A DNA stretch of 19,828 bases, from the IMG/VR virus record IMGVR_UViG_2874920711_000008; one strand, given 5' to 3'. Within the stretch, counting starts at the first letter, position 1. Each line of letters begins with the position of its first letter. The DNA comes from a virus. Its lineage: Duplodnaviria > Heunggongvirae > Uroviricota > Caudoviricetes. The translations under genes and the position numbers were made by a program. Under the pieces are notes generated by a model. It was given only the letters and a program-made list of their open reading frames with translations, made no database searches and was not told the DNA's origin. Positions 7,856-19,828 of this stretch are shown here, piece by piece.

Positions 7856-9682
7856 CCGTCTCAGCACGGAAATCATGATCAACCTTGCCGGGAACCTGAC
7901 CGCCAAAGCCCGGCAGTACGGTGCAAACATGTCGCAGTTCGCCCGGAACAACCAGAAGGCCATGCGCCTGGTCAAAGCCACAACGGAGGCTGCCGGGCGC
8001 AGTCTGGATGCGCTTGGCAACCGCTACACGGCGATGATTGCCGGGTTCGGTGGTGGTATGACCCTTAAAGGCCTGACAGATTTTGATGCGCAAATCCGCC
8101 GTGCGGGTACAAATGCAAAACTGACCGATGAGCAGGTATCCCGTTTAAGAAAAAACATCCGGGAAACCGCCAGAATGTCAGACATTCGCCTCAGTGCCCA
8201 GGTCTTACTGGAAGGCCAGGATGCACTGTATGGCCTGACCGGTAAGCCGGAATTTGTTGAAAAAAACATCCGCAATCAGGGCTGGCCACGCAGGCATTCG
8301 GGACTGCGCCACAGGATGCCGCGGCACTGATGGCACAGATGTCCGAAAAACAGATTGAAGCGCCTCAGGAGGTTGAAGGCATGTTCGACCGCTTCTACCA
8401 CCAGTTTTCCATTGGTTCGGTTGGTGTGGATCAACTGGCGCGTGTATCAGCAAAACTGTTTTCGATTTATACCGGTGGTGGCAAAGAGGCGATAGCCCAG
8501 TTGGGGCACTTGAACAGATGCTGGCAAAAACAACCGGCTCTGCGGATGAAGCGGTGACCGCGCTGAACAGTATCTGGAGTGAAGTCACCCGAAAAGACAA
8601 TATCAAGTTTCTGAAAAGAAACGGGGTTGATGTGCTTGATCCTGTCACAGGAAAACCCCGTCTGCCTTATGACGTAATCAGAGACGTTGTCAGGCGGGCA
8701 AAATTTAATGAGCAGAACTTGCAGGATGTTTTCGGGGATACTTCCATGCGTGGATTAAGGGCACTGCTCAGTGAAGACGCCCTTCAGCTAACAGAAAAAA
8801 TGATTTACGCCCCGGTTGAATCCGGTGCCATGAGAAAAGCTGCGGAGAAAAACGCCCGGAGTTTTCAGTCTGCGATGCAGTCCCTGAAGAATGAATATGA
8901 GGTTTTTGCTGAAAAAAATCTGGCAAAACCCGTTCAGGACCTGGCGGATGCCATCAACAGCGTGGACCAGAACTGGTTGCAGGTCGGTAAATATATGGCA
9001 ATTGCGCTGGGTGGCATTATCGCCGTACGTAAGACGTACAAGCTCGGTAAAACCATCCACGACATCATGAATCCCAAAGGGAAAGGCAAAGGGATACCCG
9101 GCGGTATTACGGATGTTTTCGGCTCCGGCGTGATGCCGGTGTATGTGGTCAATATGGGCAGTGGCGGGATGAACGGCAATGTCGGTGGTCTGCCGGATGC
9201 GCCGGATTCATCACGCAATCCCGTAACCCACGCAATCCACGAGGTCCGGGTAACCGCGGAGGTAATGCGGGCAAAGGCGCTGGCATCATCGCCGGTGCCC
9301 TGGAATTTTACGATTTTCTGACCACGCAATACGCCCTGCCGGGTGAGATTGACAGTCTTACAAAATCCGTGGCCGGTGATGCCAGCGCCAGCCCGTGGGA
9401 GCGCGAGTTCGCGCAACAAAGCCAGGATAACCAGAAAGCGCTCGAGTCCGTCTGGCGTAAGGTAACGGACTGGTTTAATTCGCTGGGTGACAAGAACATT
9501 GCCGACCCGCGACCGTGGGCAGGTATGCAACCCACACAGAATTATCCTTTCCTTCCGCAACAATTGCAGGGGAAATCCGTGTGGTGGTGGAAGGTGATGC
9601 CCGCGTGAAAAGCGTCAGAGTGGATCAACCCGGCGTCAGACTCAGTGCGCAGGCTGGCGTCACCAGCGTGGAGCAGGGTTAA
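7842..9682 (+). pseudogene. Tail tape measure protein (Mu gp42-like), split into at least 4 ORFs
   Basis: Co-linear ORFs 7842-8330, 8330-8557, 8518-9321 and 9369-9608 in frames 0, 2, 1, 0, plus a final stretch ...VVVEGDARVKSVRVDQPGVRLSAQAGVTSVEQG ending at 9680-9682 (TAATG overlap with the next gene). Total ~613 aa. The adjacent frame reads cleanly across the first break (...GLATQAFGTAPQDAAALMAQMSEKQ...). Confidence 0.75.
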
Positions 9683-10953
9683 TGACAACGAGCAACGGTA
9701 AATGGGACGGGCTGCGCGACGCCTCGTTTCGTGGCGTCCCCTTCTTTCTGGTGGATACGGAGGGCACCGGTGGTCGTCGTGCCATTCCCCGTGCTTATCC
9801 CCGGCGTGAAACCGCCTGGACGGATGATAACGGGGCCGTTCCGGGGCAACAGCAGATTAACGCAAAGCTGCCAGGTAAAAACTTCCGGGATGATTTAAAC
9901 GCCCTTTTAGATGCGCTCAATACCCCGGCCCGGCGAGCTTGTCCACCCGTGGTTCGGGATACAGACCGTACAGGTTGGCAAGGTCACCCATCGCCTCTGC
10001 ACGGAGGAAGACGGCATTGCGTATGTCACCTTTGAAGTGTTTGAGGCAGGCGAGCGCCTGTTCCCGTCTGCGGCGGATAACACGCAGCAGGAAGTGCTGA
10101 CAGGCATTGATGCGGTGAAAGCCGCCATTGACGATGGCGACTGGTTCGGCGCACTCGACGGGCTGGGTGACATGGCCGACAGTTTTCTGGCCGATATGGA
10201 AAACCTTGTGGCTAACCTGCCCACGTTACCGGCAGCACTGAATCAGTGGATGGACAGGCTGAAGCATTTTAAGGCGATGGCCGGAACCCTCATTGCCACA
10301 CCGGGGCGTCTGGTCAGTGAGCTGTCAGCACGGGTGGAAGATATTGCGGGCCTTGTGACGGAACCACCCGAAGCACTGGCGGTTTACACGACATTACGCA
10401 ACCAGTGGGCCGGAGAACGTGCCAGGCAGATTGCCACCGGCGCACTGCCGGAAGATATCACCGTGAAGCCCGGCAGCGTGGCAGACGGCAACCCGGCTTT
10501 GCCATCGGGCTGTCACCGGATTATCAGCCGGTATCTGACAGCCTGCAAAAGAACATTGACGACTTCCGCCAAGTGGTTGTGCTGGGAGCCCTGCTGGGAC
10601 AGGCCAGTGCCGTGGCCTCGATGACGTTCGATACCCGTGATGCGGCGTTATCTGCCGGTGACACGCTGGCGGCTGAACTGCATGAGCAGGCGGTGGCGGC
10701 GGTGGAAAACAACCAGCGGACATTGTGGCGAACGCTGCGCGATTTACGGCAGGCCGTGATTACGGATGCCCGCGAGCGTGCCGCCCGTCTGCCGGAAACC
10801 CGGCAGGTGACGCTGACCACAACCACCTCTGCCGCATTGCTGGCATGGCGCGAGCATGGTGACACACGCCGACGGGATGAAATCGTGCAGCGTAACCGCC
10901 TGCGTCATCCGTCATTCATCCTACCGACGCAACCTGTGGAGATCACCGACTGA
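9682..10953 (+). pseudogene. N: DNA circularisation protein (Mu N-like), frame breaks near 9925 and 10490
   Basis: The N-terminus MTTSNGKWDGLRDASFRGVPFFLVDTEGTGGRRAIPRAYPRRE matches the DNA-circulation N-terminal family, and ...PGELVHPWFG... continues in the next frame. Three ORFs (9682-10035, 9911-10624, 10405-10953) join through breaks in CCCCGGCCCGG and AACCCGGCTTT. Confidence 0.75.
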
Positions 10954-12018
10954 TGGAATCCGTGATTCTTACCGTTGACGGCAAACTGTGGGAAGGCTGG
11001 ACGGAAATGTCCGTCAGCCGTTCCCTGAAGGCGATTGCCGGTGAGTTTGAACTCAGTGTGACAACCCGCTGGTCAGCGGCGGCACCGCGCGTGATTCGTG
11101 AGGGGCAACCCTGCACGGTCAGGCTGGGCGCAGATACCGTGCTGACGGGGTATATCGATGATTTTATTCCCGGCTATGAGGCTGAAAACGTGGAGATTCG
11201 CGTCATGGGGCGCGATAAAACCGGCGACCTGGTGGACTGCTCTGTGGTGCATTCGTCCGGGAAATGGAAAGGCGTGCGGCTTGAACAGGTGGCGGCTGAT
11301 GTCTGCCGCCCGTTCGGGATAACCGTCATCACGGAAACCCCGACCGGGGAGGCATTTGCGTCTGTCGTTCTGGAACAGGGTGAAACGGGCTTTGAACTGC
11401 TCGACCGGCTGGCAAAACAGCGCGGCGTTCTGCTGACGTCTGACGGCGCGGGTAACCTGATTATCACCCGCGCCTCTTCCGTTCGCGCGGGCGTGTCACT
11501 GGTGCTGGGAAAAATATCCTCGCCGCCCGTGGGCGCTTCAGCTGGCGGGAGCGTAACAGCCAGTACATCATCAAGGGCACCACCAGTGCCCGTGGCAAAC
11601 TGTGGGACAGCCAGCCTGCCCGATGGTGGGCGGTCGCCAGTACATCACCGAAGCCCCGGAAATTAACCGTTACCGCCCGCGCATTCTGGTCAATGAAGAC
11701 AGCCTGACCGTGGGCGGGCCAGCATTCGCGGGAATGGTACAAAGCCCGGATGCTGGGAGAGTCCCGCACGACGGAAATCACGGTGGCAGGCTGGCGCGAA
11801 CAGGGCGACAGCGGCCCGCTGTGGCAGACCAACCGCCTTGTCGATATCGACGACAGCATTCAGAACCTGAAAACCACCTGGCTGATATCCGGGGTGACAT
11901 GGACGGATGGCGCACAGGGAGGATGACGGTTCTGGCGCTGGTTCCGCCTGAATCACTGGACATGCCGGAAATGAAAGCGAAGACGAAAAAAACAAAGGCG
12001 GTGGCCACATGGGATTAA
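10953..12018 (+). pseudogene. P: Tail/baseplate protein (Mu P-like, gp44), several frame breaks between ~11500 and ~11930
   Basis: A 237-aa N-terminal ORF, then plausible protein sequence alternating between frames (ENILAARGRFSWRERNSQYIIKGTTSARGKLWDSQ; RQYITEAPEINRYRPRILVNEDSLTVGG; EWYKARMLGESRTTEITVAGWREQGDSGPLWQTNRLVDIDDSIQNLKTTWLISGVTWTDGAQGG; MTVLALVPPESLDMPEMKAKTKK). Stop at 12016-12018. Confidence 0.6.
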
Positions 12019-14172: not shown

Positions 14173-15471
14173 GCTGAGGGATCCCCACAAAATTACTGCT
14201 AATAAACCAGCACCATATTTCGGTAGGTTCTGGACAGATGGTTTAGAACTGTGCTCAGTACTGTTCGTCTTAAAATAAGTGGCGAGTGTCGAAGAACATT
14301 CTTCGCTAACGTCAGATATGAGATAACCCGCCGGGATTTAATGCTGTTAGCCTGATATTTCAGGTGTAACCCTTTATTTTCAGCGTGATAACCGAGTAAC
14401 CACATTACGATAGTGCTCAACGTTGCCAGCAGACTCAGAACCAGAATTCTTCCTGTTGAACGACTTTTGCTGGCCCGAAGACCAAATCCGAAGCGCCCGT
14501 TCTTTTCATCACGAAAGTTTTGCTCTATCTGCATTCGCCGACTGTATAACTTGATGATTTCTCGCGCTCTGAAGTCATTTGTACTGCTGAAGATCAACCA
14601 GGCTTCTTTTGCTGATTTGCTCTGTTCTTTGTCTGTTTTGTTTAAACCACTCTGACCTTTCGAACGTTTCTTTTTTCGCCCTTTTGCCGATTTCTTATAG
14701 GTGTAAAAATGCCCCCGGATGCTTTTTTTCCTTTCTTTAACCAGCCTTCCAGCCCCATATATTCCGGTGTTTTACATTCAGGGCTATCCGACACTTTTAA
14801 CCATCTTTCAGGCGCGTTATCGAGGCAATACTGAACGTTATTTCTGATCCGACCAATAAAATCCCAGCCCAGAGAAGTAATATGGTGAAACCATGCGCTC
14901 TGAAATCCAGCATCCGTGACAATAATAACCCTGGCATCGGGGGCAGGGATTGAGCAAGGGAATCAAGGAAATCATGTTGTATCAATGGATTATTTTGTTT
15001 TTCAGAAGGAACAACCTTACTCAATAACGGAATGGAACGCCCGTCACACAGAAGGCTGGCACGAAGAACATGATGCTCCTGGAGGGATAGCCACTCCAGT
15101 CTACGGCTATTACACATAAAGATAACTGCCGTGTCAGCATTGAAGTGATATTCCTGAAAATCATTGGAATATCGCGATGGAGCGCCTCATTACCCATGAG
15201 GCGATCAATACGTTTGCTCTTATTCTTAACTTGTGCATTACCCGGGAAAAAACGTCCGATACTGGTCAGCGTCAGAGATGCTCCGTTGATTAACGCCACT
15301 GTGGCATCCATCAGGGCATTTTGTCGGTACTGATGAAATGGTGCTAAGGCATCCCGGAAGAAATTCTGACATACTTTATGAACAGGCATAGCAGTGATCT
15401 CATTGAATTGTTGGCACAAATCAGTAGATCACATAATGCTATGTCTGTCTCGTTTTCTGGGGATTCCTCAG
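14173..15471 (-). mobile_element. IS4-family (IS10-like) insertion sequence, 1299 bp, inserted in the tail fibre gene
   Basis: Termini CTGAGGGATCCCC (14173-14185) and GGGGATTCCTCAG (15459-15471) are inverted repeats with one mismatch and resemble the IS10 outside end (CTGAGAGATCCCC). Flanked by the 10-bp direct repeat. Contains a minus-strand IS10-like transposase. Confidence 0.8.
14199..15389 (-). pseudogene. IS4-family (IS10-like) transposase, in at least 4 frame segments
   Basis: Minus-strand segments align in order to IS10 transposase: N-terminal (...TLTSIGRFFPGNAQVKNKSKRIDRLMGNEALH...VDWS), middle (...HVLRASLLCDGRSIPLL...VIIVTDAGFQSAWFHHITSLGWDFIGRIRNNVQY...) and C-terminal (...IFSSTNDFRAREIIKLYSRRMQIEQNFRDEKNGRFGFGLRASKSRS...). 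One break sits at a T7 run (14723-14729). Confidence 0.8.
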
Positions 15472-15481
15472 CGTATCCGGG
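15472..15481. repeat. Right copy of the 10-bp direct repeat CGTATCCGGG
   Basis: See 14163-14172. Confidence 0.7.
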
Positions 15482-16372
15482 GCCGGACTGGTTTAATATT
15501 ATTCAGTCTGAATTACTGGAAATACTCCGGCAGGCAAATATCAAACCGGATAAAAACACAACCGACCAGATTATGACAGCGCTGAAAAAACTGTTTATTA
15601 CGAACAGTGGTTCAGCCGGAGCTATTGCCGGATTAACCGGTCAGAATAATACATTCCCTTATTTTACCGGCAAAGACACAATGGCATTAACACCGCTCAG
15701 TGCGTTTGTGCGCAGTATTCTCGGGAAAAACAGCGCCAGTGAATTTATTAAAGCAATCGGCCTGTCACCAGACATCCTTTTATCAAAAGGACCGGTGACA
15801 GCATTAAGCAGTACAGCACAGGGCAATGCAGGACTTCAGATGTATGAAGTGTACAACAACGGCTATCCCACAGCTTATGGCAATGTTCTGCATCTGAAAG
15901 GCGCGGCAGCATCTGGCGAAGGCGAACTGCTGATTGGCTGGAGTGGCACGAGCGGTGCACATGCTCCGGTTTATATTCGCTCAAGGCGTGATACCACCGA
16001 TGCAGTCTGGTCTGAATGGGCGCAGGTGTTTACATCAAAAGACAGCTTCAACGCAGCATCCGCCACAAAACTACAGACCCCACGCAAAATTAACGGTACG
16101 GCATTTGATGGCACCAGAGATATCACCATCAGCAGCACCGATTCTGGTGCAGTACGTGATTTCAGATACACCAGCGAAGTGTTTCACAATCCCGGTGGTA
16201 ACGAAATTTCCTGGGTATTCCGCGCGCCTTCAGGGTGTATTTTGTCAGGTATTAACGTTCAGGAAACTGGCAAAAGCTCTGCGGATAACATCGGGGGTGT
16301 GTATTACAAACAAACTCAGATTTATATCAATGGCGGATGGCGCACGGTATCCGGCTAATTAAGGAGAAAATA

Positions 16373-16903
16373 ATGGAACTCAGAAACGTCACGCGTTATT
16401 ACCCGGAAGAAATGCCTTATGGTGAAAACATTCAGTATTTCCGCAGTGAAGACGGACAGGATTTTTATGAATCACTGGATAAATTCACGAAGAAATACAA
16501 ATTATGTATTCACCCGGAAACCGGCGTGATTTATTCAATGGCAGAAGACGTGTCTCGTCTTTATCCTGTTGGTTTTACCATTGTGGAAGTGGATGAGCTG
16601 CCGGAGGGTTTTGACATCGAAGCCAACTGGTATTACCGGGATGGCGAAGTACTGCCAGTTCCTGTTGATTATTCGAAACTGGCAGAAAAGCAACGTCAGC
16701 GCTTGCTGAATGAAGCAAAGGAAATCACTTCCGACTGGAAAACCAAGCTGGAGCTGGGCACCATCAGCGACGATGACAAAGTCCGTCTTACGCAGTGGAT
16801 GGAATATATCAAAGCGGTGAAGGTGCTGGATTTAAGCACTGCTACCGATGAAATCTCCTTTGATGCCATCAACTGGCCGGAGCGTCCCGATGCCGCAGCT
16901 TAA
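16373..16903 (+). CDS. Tail fibre assembly chaperone (Tfa; Mu U / P2 G-like)
   Basis: AAGGAG SD 7 bp upstream of the ATG at 16373; ~176 aa; directly downstream of the fibre gene; Tfa-like features (...PEGFDIEANWYYRDGEVLPVP..., C-terminal ...DEISFDAINWPERP). Confidence 0.75.
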   Translation: MELRNVTRYYPEEMPYGENIQYFRSEDGQDFYESLDKFTKKYKLCIHPETGVIYSMAEDVSRLYPVGFTIVEVDELPEGFDIEANWYYRDGEVLPVPVDYSKLAEKQRQRLLNEAKEITSDWKTKLELGTISDDDKVRLTQWMEYIKAVKVLDLSTATDEISFDAINWPERPDAAA

Positions 16904-18296
16904 AGGTGTGATTAAAACGCCCACGGGAGAACCGCTGGGCGGCGCAACCATTACACTGACCTCCCTGCACAACCGTGCAGGGATTCTGAAAGGCGTTTTC
17001 AGCCACGTCACCACACAGAGCGGGGAGTATGACTTCCCCGTTCTGCCGGGCGTGTACAGCGTTCGCCTGACACAGAGCGCACAACGCCTTTCAGAAATCG
17101 GTGTCATTCGCGTTTATGAAGATTCAGCGGACGGTTCGCTGAATGATTTTCTGGGCGCAACTGATATTGACCTGCGTCCGGAATCCCTGAAGAAATTCGA
17201 AGAGCTGGCGCAACAGGCGCAGCAGAGTGCCGGGGCCGCAGCCGGAAACGCACAGCAGACGGCGCAGGATGTGGCGGCAGCCGCAACGGCCCGTGATGAT
17301 GCACAACGTTTTGCGGAGAAAGCCCGACAGGATGCAACCGTCACAGCTGAGGACAGAAAGGCCACTGCGGAAGATGTGACAAGCACAGGAGCAAATGCAG
17401 CCGCAGCCGGACAGAGCGCACAGGATGCCGCAGGTTATGCCCGCGCAGCAGAACAGGCCAAAAATGACATTGATGCTGCGCTGACCGGCACTCTGAAAAT
17501 GGCTAACCATCTGTCAGAAATCGCAGCAGCAGGCGAAAAGGCACAACAGAAGTCCCGGGATAATCTGGGGCTGAAAAGTGCGGCCACGATGGAAGCACAG
17601 AGCGACATTTACGACCGGACAAAAGGCCGTCTGGCGATACCCGGCGCATTCGGCTTTGGGTGTGCTTTTCTGCCTGAAGATGTTATCCGTTTTGACACTA
17701 AGAGTGATTTCCTGGCCTGGGTAAGGAATGCGCTGCCAGGTGAGTATTCCGTTGCTGGCCCCTACGGCATCATCATACCCGACACACGGTTTGAAGGGGG
17801 GCTCAGCATCCGGTGGACTGATGCACGCCCTGAGACAACAGAACCGAGGTACAGAGCCAAATCCCTTACTTTTTACGGCATTAACGGCCCCATTTATCAC
17901 ACCCGCTACTGCTACTGGCCCATATCCAGACTGACTGGCTGGGTGAAAATAAATATAACCACAGAAGATATTATTTACAGAATCGTGGCGAGCTCTGTCC
18001 GCAACAGATGGGGAGACCCTGACATTGGCGGGCTGATTATTGCTGCGTACCAGGGAAAAGCTGACGGTGATAAAGACATCAGACTTGTCAGGGGGCGGTC
18101 ATACAGAGGCTCACGACTGGGACCGGTGGGGATTTCAGCGCCCTGTACTCCCACCGGAACGCATATAGTATACCCACAATATTTCATTACGGGATGTTCA
18201 GAGCATTCATTACCGGGGTCATATTGCGCCCTGTCCGGGGTGCCGGATACATATGTCTCTGGCGCAATGCTTGGGCTTTTTATTCGCACATCGTGA
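16890..18296 (+). CDS. Second tail fibre protein with a lambdoid Stf-type N-terminal domain
   Basis: Intact 469-aa ORF from the ATG at 16890 (GGAG SD upstream; overlaps the tfa 3' end). N-terminus MPQLKGVIKTPTGEPLGGATITLTSLHNRAGILKGVF...VYSVRLTQSAQ...IRVYEDSADGSLNDFLGA resembles prophage side-tail-fibre N-termini, followed by an Ala/Gln-rich stretch. Confidence 0.7.
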   Translation: MPQLKGVIKTPTGEPLGGATITLTSLHNRAGILKGVFSHVTTQSGEYDFPVLPGVYSVRLTQSAQRLSEIGVIRVYEDSADGSLNDFLGATDIDLRPESLKKFEELAQQAQQSAGAAAGNAQQTAQDVAAAATARDDAQRFAEKARQDATVTAEDRKATAEDVTSTGANAAAAGQSAQDAAGYARAAEQAKNDIDAALTGTLKMANHLSEIAAAGEKAQQKSRDNLGLKSAATMEAQSDIYDRTKGRLAIPGAFGFGCAFLPEDVIRFDTKSDFLAWVRNALPGEYSVAGPYGIIIPDTRFEGGLSIRWTDARPETTEPRYRAKSLTFYGINGPIYHTRYCYWPISRLTGWVKINITTEDIIYRIVASSVRNRWGDPDIGGLIIAAYQGKADGDKDIRLVRGRSYRGSRLGPVGISAPCTPTGTHIVYPQYFITGCSEHSLPGSYCALSGVPDTYVSGAMLGLFIRTS

Positions 18297-18306
18297 GGAA
18301 TGCACT

Positions 18307-18872
18307 GTGGAAATTAAAAAAATCATTAATCCCCGTTATACCGAAAGTGGCGCAGTAGACTGTGACGTTTTTTTGACGACAGGGACCAGGCAGTCCCCTA
18401 CACAGCCACCGCTGATGATGTCGCTCCGACGGGTCAGCAAATCTGGCAGGAACTGCAAAGCGGCAAATGGGGTGAGATAGCCCCATTCACTGTGACACCA
18501 GAAATGCTGGAAGCGGCCAGAGAGGCCAGACGTCAGGAAATTGAAGCATGGCGCACAGAACAGGAGGCGAAGCCGTTCACGTTTGAATGGAACGGTCGTA
18601 TCTGGGATGCTGGCCCCGACTCACTGGGCCGCCTGTCCCCGGTGGTCATGCTGGCAAAATCTGTCGCGGCACAAACAAATATGACGTGGAGTGATGCGGA
18701 TAATCAGCAGGTGCAGCTGACGACGCAGGAACTTGAGGAACTGGCCACAGCGATGATACAGGCCATTGTTGAGCGCAACGATGAGATTTATCGCTGTCAG
18801 CGGGAGATGAAAGAACAACTTTCTCTGTTGCCCACACTGGACGAGGTGAGAGCGTTCAGACCAGGCGATTAA
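18307..18872 (+). pseudogene. Tail fibre assembly protein with DUF4376-like C-terminus, frame break at a T7 run (18368-18374)
   Basis: GTG at 18307 after a GAGGA SD reads VEIKKIINPRYTESGAVDCDVF; after the T7 run the next frame continues FDDRDQAVPYTATADDVAPTGQQIWQELQSGKWGEIAPFTVTPEMLEAAREARRQEIEAWRTEQEAKPFTFEWNGRIWDAGPDS... to a stop at 18872. One extra T restores a single ~188-aa ORF. Confidence 0.6.
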
Positions 18873-18894
18873 ATAATCAGTTTGTATAGTTTAT

Positions 18895-18996
18895 GACGAT
18901 CGATAGAATCATATCGATCGTCGGTTTGCATCAAGTGTGATTAAATACCCCCAGCCCTCCGGGCAGCGATATCCTGTTATTACACTGGGGGAAATT
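18895..18996 (+). promoter_or_regulatory. Putative mom-operon regulatory region: GATC-containing palindrome (18904-18931) plus a C/G-rich segment upstream of com
   Basis: Perfect 11-bp inverted repeat GACGATCGATA/TATCGATCGTC around a 6-nt spacer holds two GATC sites (18907-18910, 18925-18928); then CCCCCAGCCCTCCGGGCAGCGATATCCTGTTATTACACTGGGGG up to the com SD. Mu mom control is known to use Dam-methylated GATC sites and C-protein binding; assignment here is by position and analogy. Confidence 0.4.
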
Positions 18997-19182
18997 ATGG
19001 ACTCTGTTCGTTGTAAAAATTGCAATAAATTGCTGTTTAAAGGAGGTTTTAAGCATATAGAAATCAAATGTCCTCGCTGTAAACGTTACATTGTCATATC
19101 GAGTGCCCGGGAGCATCCCACGGAGCTGTATTGTGGGAAAAGAGAAGAAATCACGCATTCTGACAAAACCCTGCGTTATTGA
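18997..19182 (+). CDS. com: Com, zinc-finger translational activator of mom
   Basis: 61-aa [64 protein letters not shown] with a CxxC...CxxC...C arrangement, recognisably Mu Com; GGGG SD upstream; 3' end overlaps the mom 5' end. Confidence 0.85.
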
Positions 19183-19828
19183 GTATGAAGGCCGGATTGT
19201 CGGCTATGGTTCAAGGGAGCTGCGCGTTGAAACCATATCCTGCTGGCTGGCCCGCACAATCATTCAGACAAAGCATTATTCCCGCCGTTTTGTGAATAAC
19301 TCCTGGTTGCATCTGGGCGTATTCAGTGGACGTGATCTGGTTGGTGTTCTTCAGTGGGGATATGCCCTTAACCCCAACTCAGGGCGTCGCGTTGTGCTTG
19401 AAACGGATAACCGGGGCTATATGGAACTGAACCGCATGTGGCTACACGACGACATGCCCCGCAACTCTGAATCACGGGCCATCAGCTACGCGCTGAAAAC
19501 CATCAGGTTACTGTATCCGTCAGTGGAGTGGGTTCAGTCCTTTGCAGACGAACGTTGCGGGCGTGCAGGTGTTGTGTATCAGGCGTCAAATTTTGATTTT
19601 ATTGGCAGCCATGAAAGCACATTCTACGAACTGGACGGTGAGTGGTATCACGAGATAACGATGAATGCGATTAATCGTGGAGGGAAGCGCGGCGAATATT
19701 TACGAGCGAATAAGGAGCGGGCCGTGGCGCACAAATTTAATCAATATCGTTACATCAGGTTCCTGAACAAGCGCGCAAAAAAGCGACTAAACACTAAGCT
19801 ATTCAGGATTCAGCCTTACCCGAAGTGA
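19133..19828 (+). CDS. mom: Mom, DNA adenine modification (anti-restriction) protein; start uncertain (open frame from 19091, GTG at 19133 gives 231 aa)
   Basis: ...[99 protein letters not shown]... is recognisably Mu Mom; overlaps com as in Mu. The stop TGA is the last 3 bases of the window. Confidence 0.85.

Follow-up and report, generated by a model that had tools for sequence, protein, structure and literature searches.

The question raised by this locus is whether the palindrome upstream of com and mom in a Mu-like prophage is a methylation-sensitive operator, and how it is related to operators of this kind that are already known. The mom product is a toxic DNA-modifying enzyme that shields phage DNA from restriction, and the multilayer control of mom is a textbook example of methylation-dependent gene regulation. 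An earlier note on the stretch of DNA analysed here (19,828 nt, referred to as the window) had proposed a methylation-sensitive operator of the Mu mom type. This proposal is supported by homology, conservation and exclusive association with com-mom, and the palindrome is probably the core of a Dam-methylation-sensitive OxyR operator of com-mom that would act through the Dam/OxyR mechanism.

The window is a Mu-like prophage of E. coli and is 99.6% identical to strain VL40 (L002) across 18700–19250. The genes around the palindrome are as follows.

18492–18872, plus strand: 3′ part of a DUF4376 tail-fibre-assembly-type gene (Pfam DUF4376, L002 annotation); context, outside the operator.

18997–19182, plus strand: com, translational activator of mom (Pfam Zn_ribbon_Com).

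19133–19828, plus strand: mom, DNA adenine modification enzyme (Pfam Mom, E = 1e-75), with a GTG start assigned by homology to Mu.

The com-mom DNA shows 83% nucleotide identity to Mu com-mom. In the VL40 prophage, the head, tail and baseplate genes are followed by two tandem tail-fibre/assembly pairs and then by com-mom. In the window, the tail-fibre and assembly gene pairs, two in tandem, occupy 15378–18872 without a gin invertase or an invertible segment. The DUF4376 gene (18246–18872) carries a 1-bp deletion relative to VL40, and the frameshift, with its break at 18367/18368 adjoining a T-run (18368–18374), leaves just a 126-aa ORF from 18492; the gene is a pseudogene unless the deletion is a sequencing error in the homopolymer. 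The tape measure and DNA circularization proteins, which are single long CDSs in VL40, appear at about 8400–12000 of the window as several overlapping shorter ORFs, which suggests more frameshifts or local divergence.

An inverted-repeat search recovered the palindrome as GACGATCGATA-gaatca-TATCGATCGTC at 18895–18922, with 11-nt arms that are 100% complementary and 6 nt between them. The perfect 11-bp palindrome with two GATCs described in the earlier note was thereby confirmed, with the GATCs at 18898 and 18916. Its start had been placed correctly at 18895, but the position 18904–18931 given for it elsewhere was 9 too high, and the distance to com, put at about 70 bp, was measured as 74 bp from the palindrome end to the com ATG (18997). 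The two GATCs are 18 bp apart, start to start. The palindrome sits within a 124-bp intergenic region and is the longest perfect inverted repeat (loop ≤12) of the window. GATC is rarer than expected by a factor of two in the window (35 copies against about 76), whose whole length has only one further pair of GATCs spaced within 20 bp.

We compared 34 distinct upstream sequences from E. coli genomes and viral contigs, among which two types were distinguished. Sequences of the Mu type have gin upstream, three GATCs and OxyR-like half-sites scoring 7/7, and those of the window type have no gin, two GATCs, perfect 11-bp arms and half-sites scoring 8–9/5. Mu was represented by AF083977 (L001), and the control region of agn43 (flu), another classic Dam/OxyR switch, of E. 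coli K-12 (PMC2909390), by NC_000913 (L055). The parts of the palindrome and the site that follows it are listed below.

18895–18905, unstranded: left arm GACGATCGATA, from the inverted-repeat search; only 18895 varies among the 19 window-type variants.

18898–18901, unstranded: GATC1, a Dam target homologous to Mu GATC1 and agn43 GATC-I; invariant in 34 of 34 upstream variants.

18906–18911, unstranded: central 6-nt spacer (gaatca); three of its six positions vary, and the first two bases are hypervariable among relatives.

18912–18922, unstranded: right arm TATCGATCGTC, invariant in window-type variants; TATCGATCGT is identical to the agn43 GATC-II context.

18916–18919, unstranded: GATC2, a Dam target; its 18-bp distance from GATC1 is that of Mu.

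18929–18932, unstranded: CATC in place of the lost third Dam site, 13 bp beyond GATC2, where Mu has GATC3 and agn43 has GATC-III.

In Mu, Dam methylation of three GATCs in a 43-bp upstream region stops OxyR binding, and mom transcription requires the activator C (PMC7549136, PMC3378877 and PMC4461284). A BLAST search against phage records missed the homology of the operator to Mu, as Mu, D108 and SfMu matched only from 19007 on, inside com. The homology was detected through a direct ungapped comparison, in which the two sequences share ATAG-N7-CGATCGA-N10-TCGATCG and an 18-bp spacing of the first two GATCs. The aligned rows are given below.

Window: TATAG TTTATGA CGATCGA TAGAATCATA TCGATCG TCGGTTTG CATC

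Mu: TATAG AAAACGA CGATCGA ATCAATTAAA TCGATCG GTAATACA GATC

This alignment is the opposite of the dissimilar site arrangement that the earlier note had named as evidence against its own proposal. Regarding the number and spacing of the GATCs, which it had suggested comparing with Mu, the 18-bp spacing is the same but the number is two instead of three: Mu-type regions have three GATCs within about 43 bp (PMC7549136, citing Sun & Hattman 1996), and CATC stands at 18929–18932 in 19 of the 19 window-type variants. The same note had regarded the single tight palindrome as a departure from Mu. This view does not hold, since Mu has a weaker dyad with 7-bp arms and agn43 has a 9/10 form. In Mu, the bases ATAG...CGATCGA are the final codons of gin (IENDDRIN*), and the gin stop codon is located between GATC1 and GATC2. 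The same bases are coding in Mu and non-coding in the window, which indicates that the constraint acts on the DNA site.

The half-sites were scored on the 10 specified positions of the OxyR consensus ATAGnTnnnAnCTAT (PMC2909390, PMC4856963), and their register is based on these scores and on analogous sites in agn43, gtr and opvAB.

18886–18900, unstranded: OxyR-like half-site A, ATAGTTTATGACGAT, matching ATAGnTnnnAnCTAT at 8/10 positions and overlapping GATC1 with its 3′ end.

18917–18931, unstranded: OxyR-like half-site B, ATCGTCGGTTTGCAT, weak at 5/10; the centres of A and B are 31 bp apart.

Mu half-sites: A at 848–862, 7/10, and B at 879–893, 7/10; centre spacing 31 bp.

agn43 half-sites: A at 306–320, 8/10, and B at 338–352, 8/10; centre spacing 32 bp.

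The canonical half-site spacing for reduced OxyR is 32 bp (PMC4856963). Half-site A has the same register as the A half-sites of Mu and agn43, and is one of only 6 positions that score 8/10 among 19,814 in the window. Among about 39,600 pairs in the window, the pair formed by half-sites A and B, with 13/20, ranks in the top 8 and is tied second best; as the OxyR consensus is degenerate and scores of 8/10 and 13/20 arise by chance a few times per 20 kb, the pair score is suggestive and not decisive. Each half-site has a GATC at its inner end, GATC1 in A and GATC2 in B. The midpoint between the half-sites is the centre of the palindrome (18908.5), and the midpoint in agn43 (329) is the centre of its dyad. 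Given this coincidence, an OxyR tetramer site with the palindrome as its symmetric inner core is the most likely reading. The simple half-site model gives no explanation for the invariance of the inner arm bases (GATA/TATC), which fall within the nominal spacer separating the half-sites.

The conservation of the operator was evaluated in the 19 window-type variants. Variation was seen in 8 of 46 operator columns and in 41 of 78 columns elsewhere in the intergenic region (Fisher p = 1.2e-4). Within the operator, the positions that varied were the 'n' positions 18923 and 18924 of half-site B and 18890 of half-site A, the spacer positions 18906, 18907 and 18911, and positions 18928 and 18895. At 18906–18907, the dinucleotides GA, GC, AC, CC, TC and CA were found among relatives. 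The sole substitution in the arms is G to A at 18895 (L010/L023), which breaks the outer hairpin pair and raises half-site A to 9/10; half-site A changed only at its 'n' position and by this G to A towards the consensus.

The window type is present in 49 of 5,426 complete E. coli genomes (about 1%). In a search of 2.9 million viral contigs with ACGATCGATA-N6-TATCGATCGT, all 18 contigs with the palindrome also carried com-mom. A looser pattern, CGATCGA-N10-TCGATCG, matched more than 120 unrelated viral contigs and was uninformative. When E. coli prophages were compared, the element accompanied com-mom and not the upstream gene: where the upstream genes differ (an intact tail fibre, a truncated one or an IS3 insertion), homology between the prophages sets in at about 18881, just 5′ of ATAG. 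Two further copies were observed in rearranged surroundings. In E. coli bR_120_Kylling (L009, 2501–2669), the palindrome has 12-bp arms and a 4-nt loop, GACGATCGATAA catc TTATCGATCGTC, and a deletion fuses the operator to the 3′ end of mom; on the 138-kb plasmid pPS1T_138kb (L056), the operator lies with com and a truncated mom remnant among IS elements.

A Mom scan of genome contigs found three loci only. Among the relatives, the more diverged com-mom operons L004, L049 and L051 retain three GATCs and half-sites 31 bp apart, with GATC layouts of 18/13 in L004 and L051 and 31/13 in L049. Their operators are located at 2746–2791 (L004), 2237–2291 (L049) and 2258–2291 (L051), and in L049 GATC1 is shifted to the 5′ end of half-site A while the half-sites are still 31 bp apart. 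In a Scandinavium locus (L003), half-site B scores 9/10. The third GATC is present in Mu, in agn43 and in all the other com-mom operons examined, which indicates that the window type is a derived, two-GATC exception.

In regards to the promoter, one further feature of the intergenic region was considered.

18943–18954, plus strand: C-rich block AAATACCCCCAG, tentatively a possible late-activator (C) box; it resembles the Mu late-promoter box and is conserved in window-type variants.

The Mu late promoters share ATAACCCC(A/G)G (PMC4461284). The earlier note had counted the C/G-rich segment after the palindrome among the features that fit Mu-type control; such a segment is present, but its resemblance to the Mu box is weak (AAATACCCCCAG versus ATAACCCC). 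Oligonucleotides of the Mu late promoters (lys, I, P and mom) gave no significant match in the window, and hits to ATA(A/C)CCC(C/G) were scattered and without clear meaning. A promoter scan found no sigma-70-like promoter and located no −10 element or +1 position. The activator gene is located outside the window. In a second inverted repeat (18942–18954 and 18985–18997; 13 nt, 85%), the C-rich block (CCCCCAG) is paired with the Shine-Dalgarno sequence of com (CTGGGGG). The idea that this repeat masks com translation on read-through transcripts was dropped, as the RNA fold was no better than shuffles (z = −0.4).

The palindrome could instead be read as RNA, as an intrinsic terminator or stability element that ends the late tail-fibre operon and insulates com-mom from read-through. 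It begins 23 bp past the end of the last tail gene (stop codon at 18872), and the hairpin of 11–12 bp is stable, with an MFE of −24.4 kcal/mol and z = −4.7 against shuffles, so that an RNA-level role is possible. In addition, a terminator scan found no other candidate between 18873 and com, and some relatives (L008) have GUCGUUUUGC after the stem. The element thus resembles a rho-independent terminator in being a stable stem-loop right after the last gene of an operon, but it differs in having no U-tract: the stem is followed by GGTTTGC (GGUUUGC in RNA), with three U only, and the scan made no call there, in line with the earlier note, which had judged a terminator unlikely on the same ground. 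The Mu homologue likewise has no U-tract, and its stem of 7 bp encloses a 10-nt loop with the gin stop codon inside. An Rfam search of the hairpin gave no match. Hairpin pair counting revealed no informative covariation, as the one class-level swap of A:T for T:A fits a DNA dyad equally well, and the sole arm change is uncompensated. What is conserved is the identity and spacing of the GATCs, and the element is kept with com-mom in prophages that have another upstream gene or an IS3 insertion in it. A terminator or RNA element is therefore unlikely to be the main role of the palindrome.

A protein other than OxyR might also account for a perfect dyad. In the two-GATC lineage, OxyR could have been replaced by another dimeric regulator, encoded by the phage or by the host (Fis, SeqA or Fur, for example). 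Such a protein is conceivable because half-site B is degenerate, and the dyad turned perfect while GATC3 was lost; moreover, Fis protects −107 to −84 in Mu, overlapping the GATC1 area (PMC3378877), and a Fur/Dam switch is known in another system (PMC3145626). However, the same dyad is present at 9/10 in agn43, whose regulator is OxyR (PMC2909390). The centre of the dyad is hypervariable and thus not read, and the conserved ATAG 7 bp upstream of the palindrome is in keeping with OxyR but not with a protein confined to reading the 28-bp dyad. These three observations favour OxyR. The 18-bp spacing would place the two GATCs on different faces of the helix, which would be poor for SeqA. A resemblance of GATAGAATCATATC to a Fur box, seen by eye, was rejected because the central bases are hypervariable. 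We consider replacement of OxyR very unlikely. The notion that the palindrome is a functionless product of chance or a relic, a remnant of the lost 3′ end of gin with symmetry derived from self-complementary CGATCG words, is hardly credible. Part of the symmetry is indeed automatic with two copies of the CGATCG core, and when the whole 19.8-kb window was simulated 300 times with a first-order Markov model, arms of at least 11 bp occurred somewhere in 4.7% of the simulations. However, the flanks GA/TC and ATA/TAT are inverted too, the operator is significantly less variable than the flanking intergenic DNA, the palindrome occurs only beside com-mom in the viral collection, and the layout is kept across Mu, the diverged com-mom operons and agn43.

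For an operator of the host repressor OxyR, which is the reading we prefer, the following mechanism can be proposed. A reduced OxyR tetramer would occupy the half-sites at 18886–18900 and 18917–18931, the midpoint of which coincides with the centre of the palindrome. With the GATCs unmethylated, or perhaps hemimethylated, OxyR would be bound and the com-mom promoter off. Dam methylation of both GATCs would block OxyR, and with OxyR excluded the phage late activator would switch on com-mom, upon which Com would enable mom translation. We infer OxyR binding, methylation sensitivity, repression and C dependence from homology. The poor half-site B (5/10) and the missing third GATC could lower the affinity for OxyR or alter the geometry of binding. 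It is quite unlikely that the symmetric two-GATC operator of the gin-less lineage works differently and is more than a degenerate copy of the Mu site. If it did, OxyR might bind chiefly through half-site A and symmetric inner CGATCGATA contacts and give agn43-like heritable ON/OFF methylation states at the mom operator in lysogens, or the dyad might have been taken over by another dimeric regulator or double as a hairpin that insulates com-mom from read-through of the tail-fibre operon now adjoining it.

The OxyR operator proposed here reveals no new mechanism. It adds a sister operator with two GATCs and a perfect dyad, found in about 1% of complete E. coli genomes, and provides a natural 'minimal' operator in which to ask how many methylated GATCs, and which half-site contacts, exclude OxyR.

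Judged by homology, the palindrome is the counterpart, in this Mu-like prophage, of the Mu mom GATC control site, which holds mom off until methylation has occurred, and is a variant of a known element. It resembles region I of Mu, a cluster of Dam-methylated GATCs with an OxyR/MomR operator 5′ of the C-dependent Pmom, in its identical place upstream of com-mom, in its OxyR-like half-sites 31 bp apart and in the C-rich block downstream. The window has two GATCs (CATC at 18929) whereas Mu has three, and its dyad arms are perfect over 11 bp and not 7 bp. Half-site A is stronger in the window (8 versus 7) and half-site B is weaker (5 versus 7). In Mu, half-site A and GATC1 lie inside the gin CDS, whose last nine codons overlap them, whereas in the window they are non-coding, after a tail-fibre-assembly gene and without gin. 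The window DNA downstream of the operator, which would comprise the promoter region, is not alignable to Mu by BLAST.

The agn43 control region reads ATAG AATAAAA CGATC AATATCTATTT TATCGATCGT TTATAT CGATC, and it has in common with the window ATAG-N7-CGATC followed by the same 10-mer, TATCGATCGT. Its dyad is ACGATCAATA / TATCGATCGT, and the dyad common to agn43 and the window is ACGATC(A/G)ATA / TATCGATCGT. As in the window, the dyad centre is the half-site midpoint and the GATCs lie at the inner ends of the half-sites. Unlike the window, agn43 carries three GATCs, spaced 19/13, and the centre of its dyad is 7 nt long; both of its half-sites score 8/10, and they are 32 bp apart. The agn43 operator is located at or downstream of the transcription start and yields heritable ON/OFF phase variation, whereas the window site lies upstream of a presumably activator-dependent phage promoter. 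According to PMC2909390, it is not known whether mom phase-varies. The resemblance of the agn43 (L055, 306–375) and Mu (L001, 848–912) regions extends beyond the OxyR site: in both, GATCGAT(A/T)A is followed by AATAACC, whose offset from the third GATC is the same. This hints at a common ancestry of the two regions. agn43 is located in the cryptic prophage CP4-44.

The gtr operons of Salmonella and P22 and opvAB are similar to the window in that GATCs are embedded in OxyR half-sites at the spacing of the reduced tetramer, and methylation blocks OxyR binding in these systems (PMC2909390, PMC4856963). They have three or four half-sites with alternative occupancy and 13-bp GATC pairs inside one half-site, whereas the window has one half-site pair and lacks GATCs paired at 13 bp. 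The comparison suggests that in Mu, agn43 and the window alike, the dyad reflects the two-fold symmetry of the site of the reduced OxyR tetramer.
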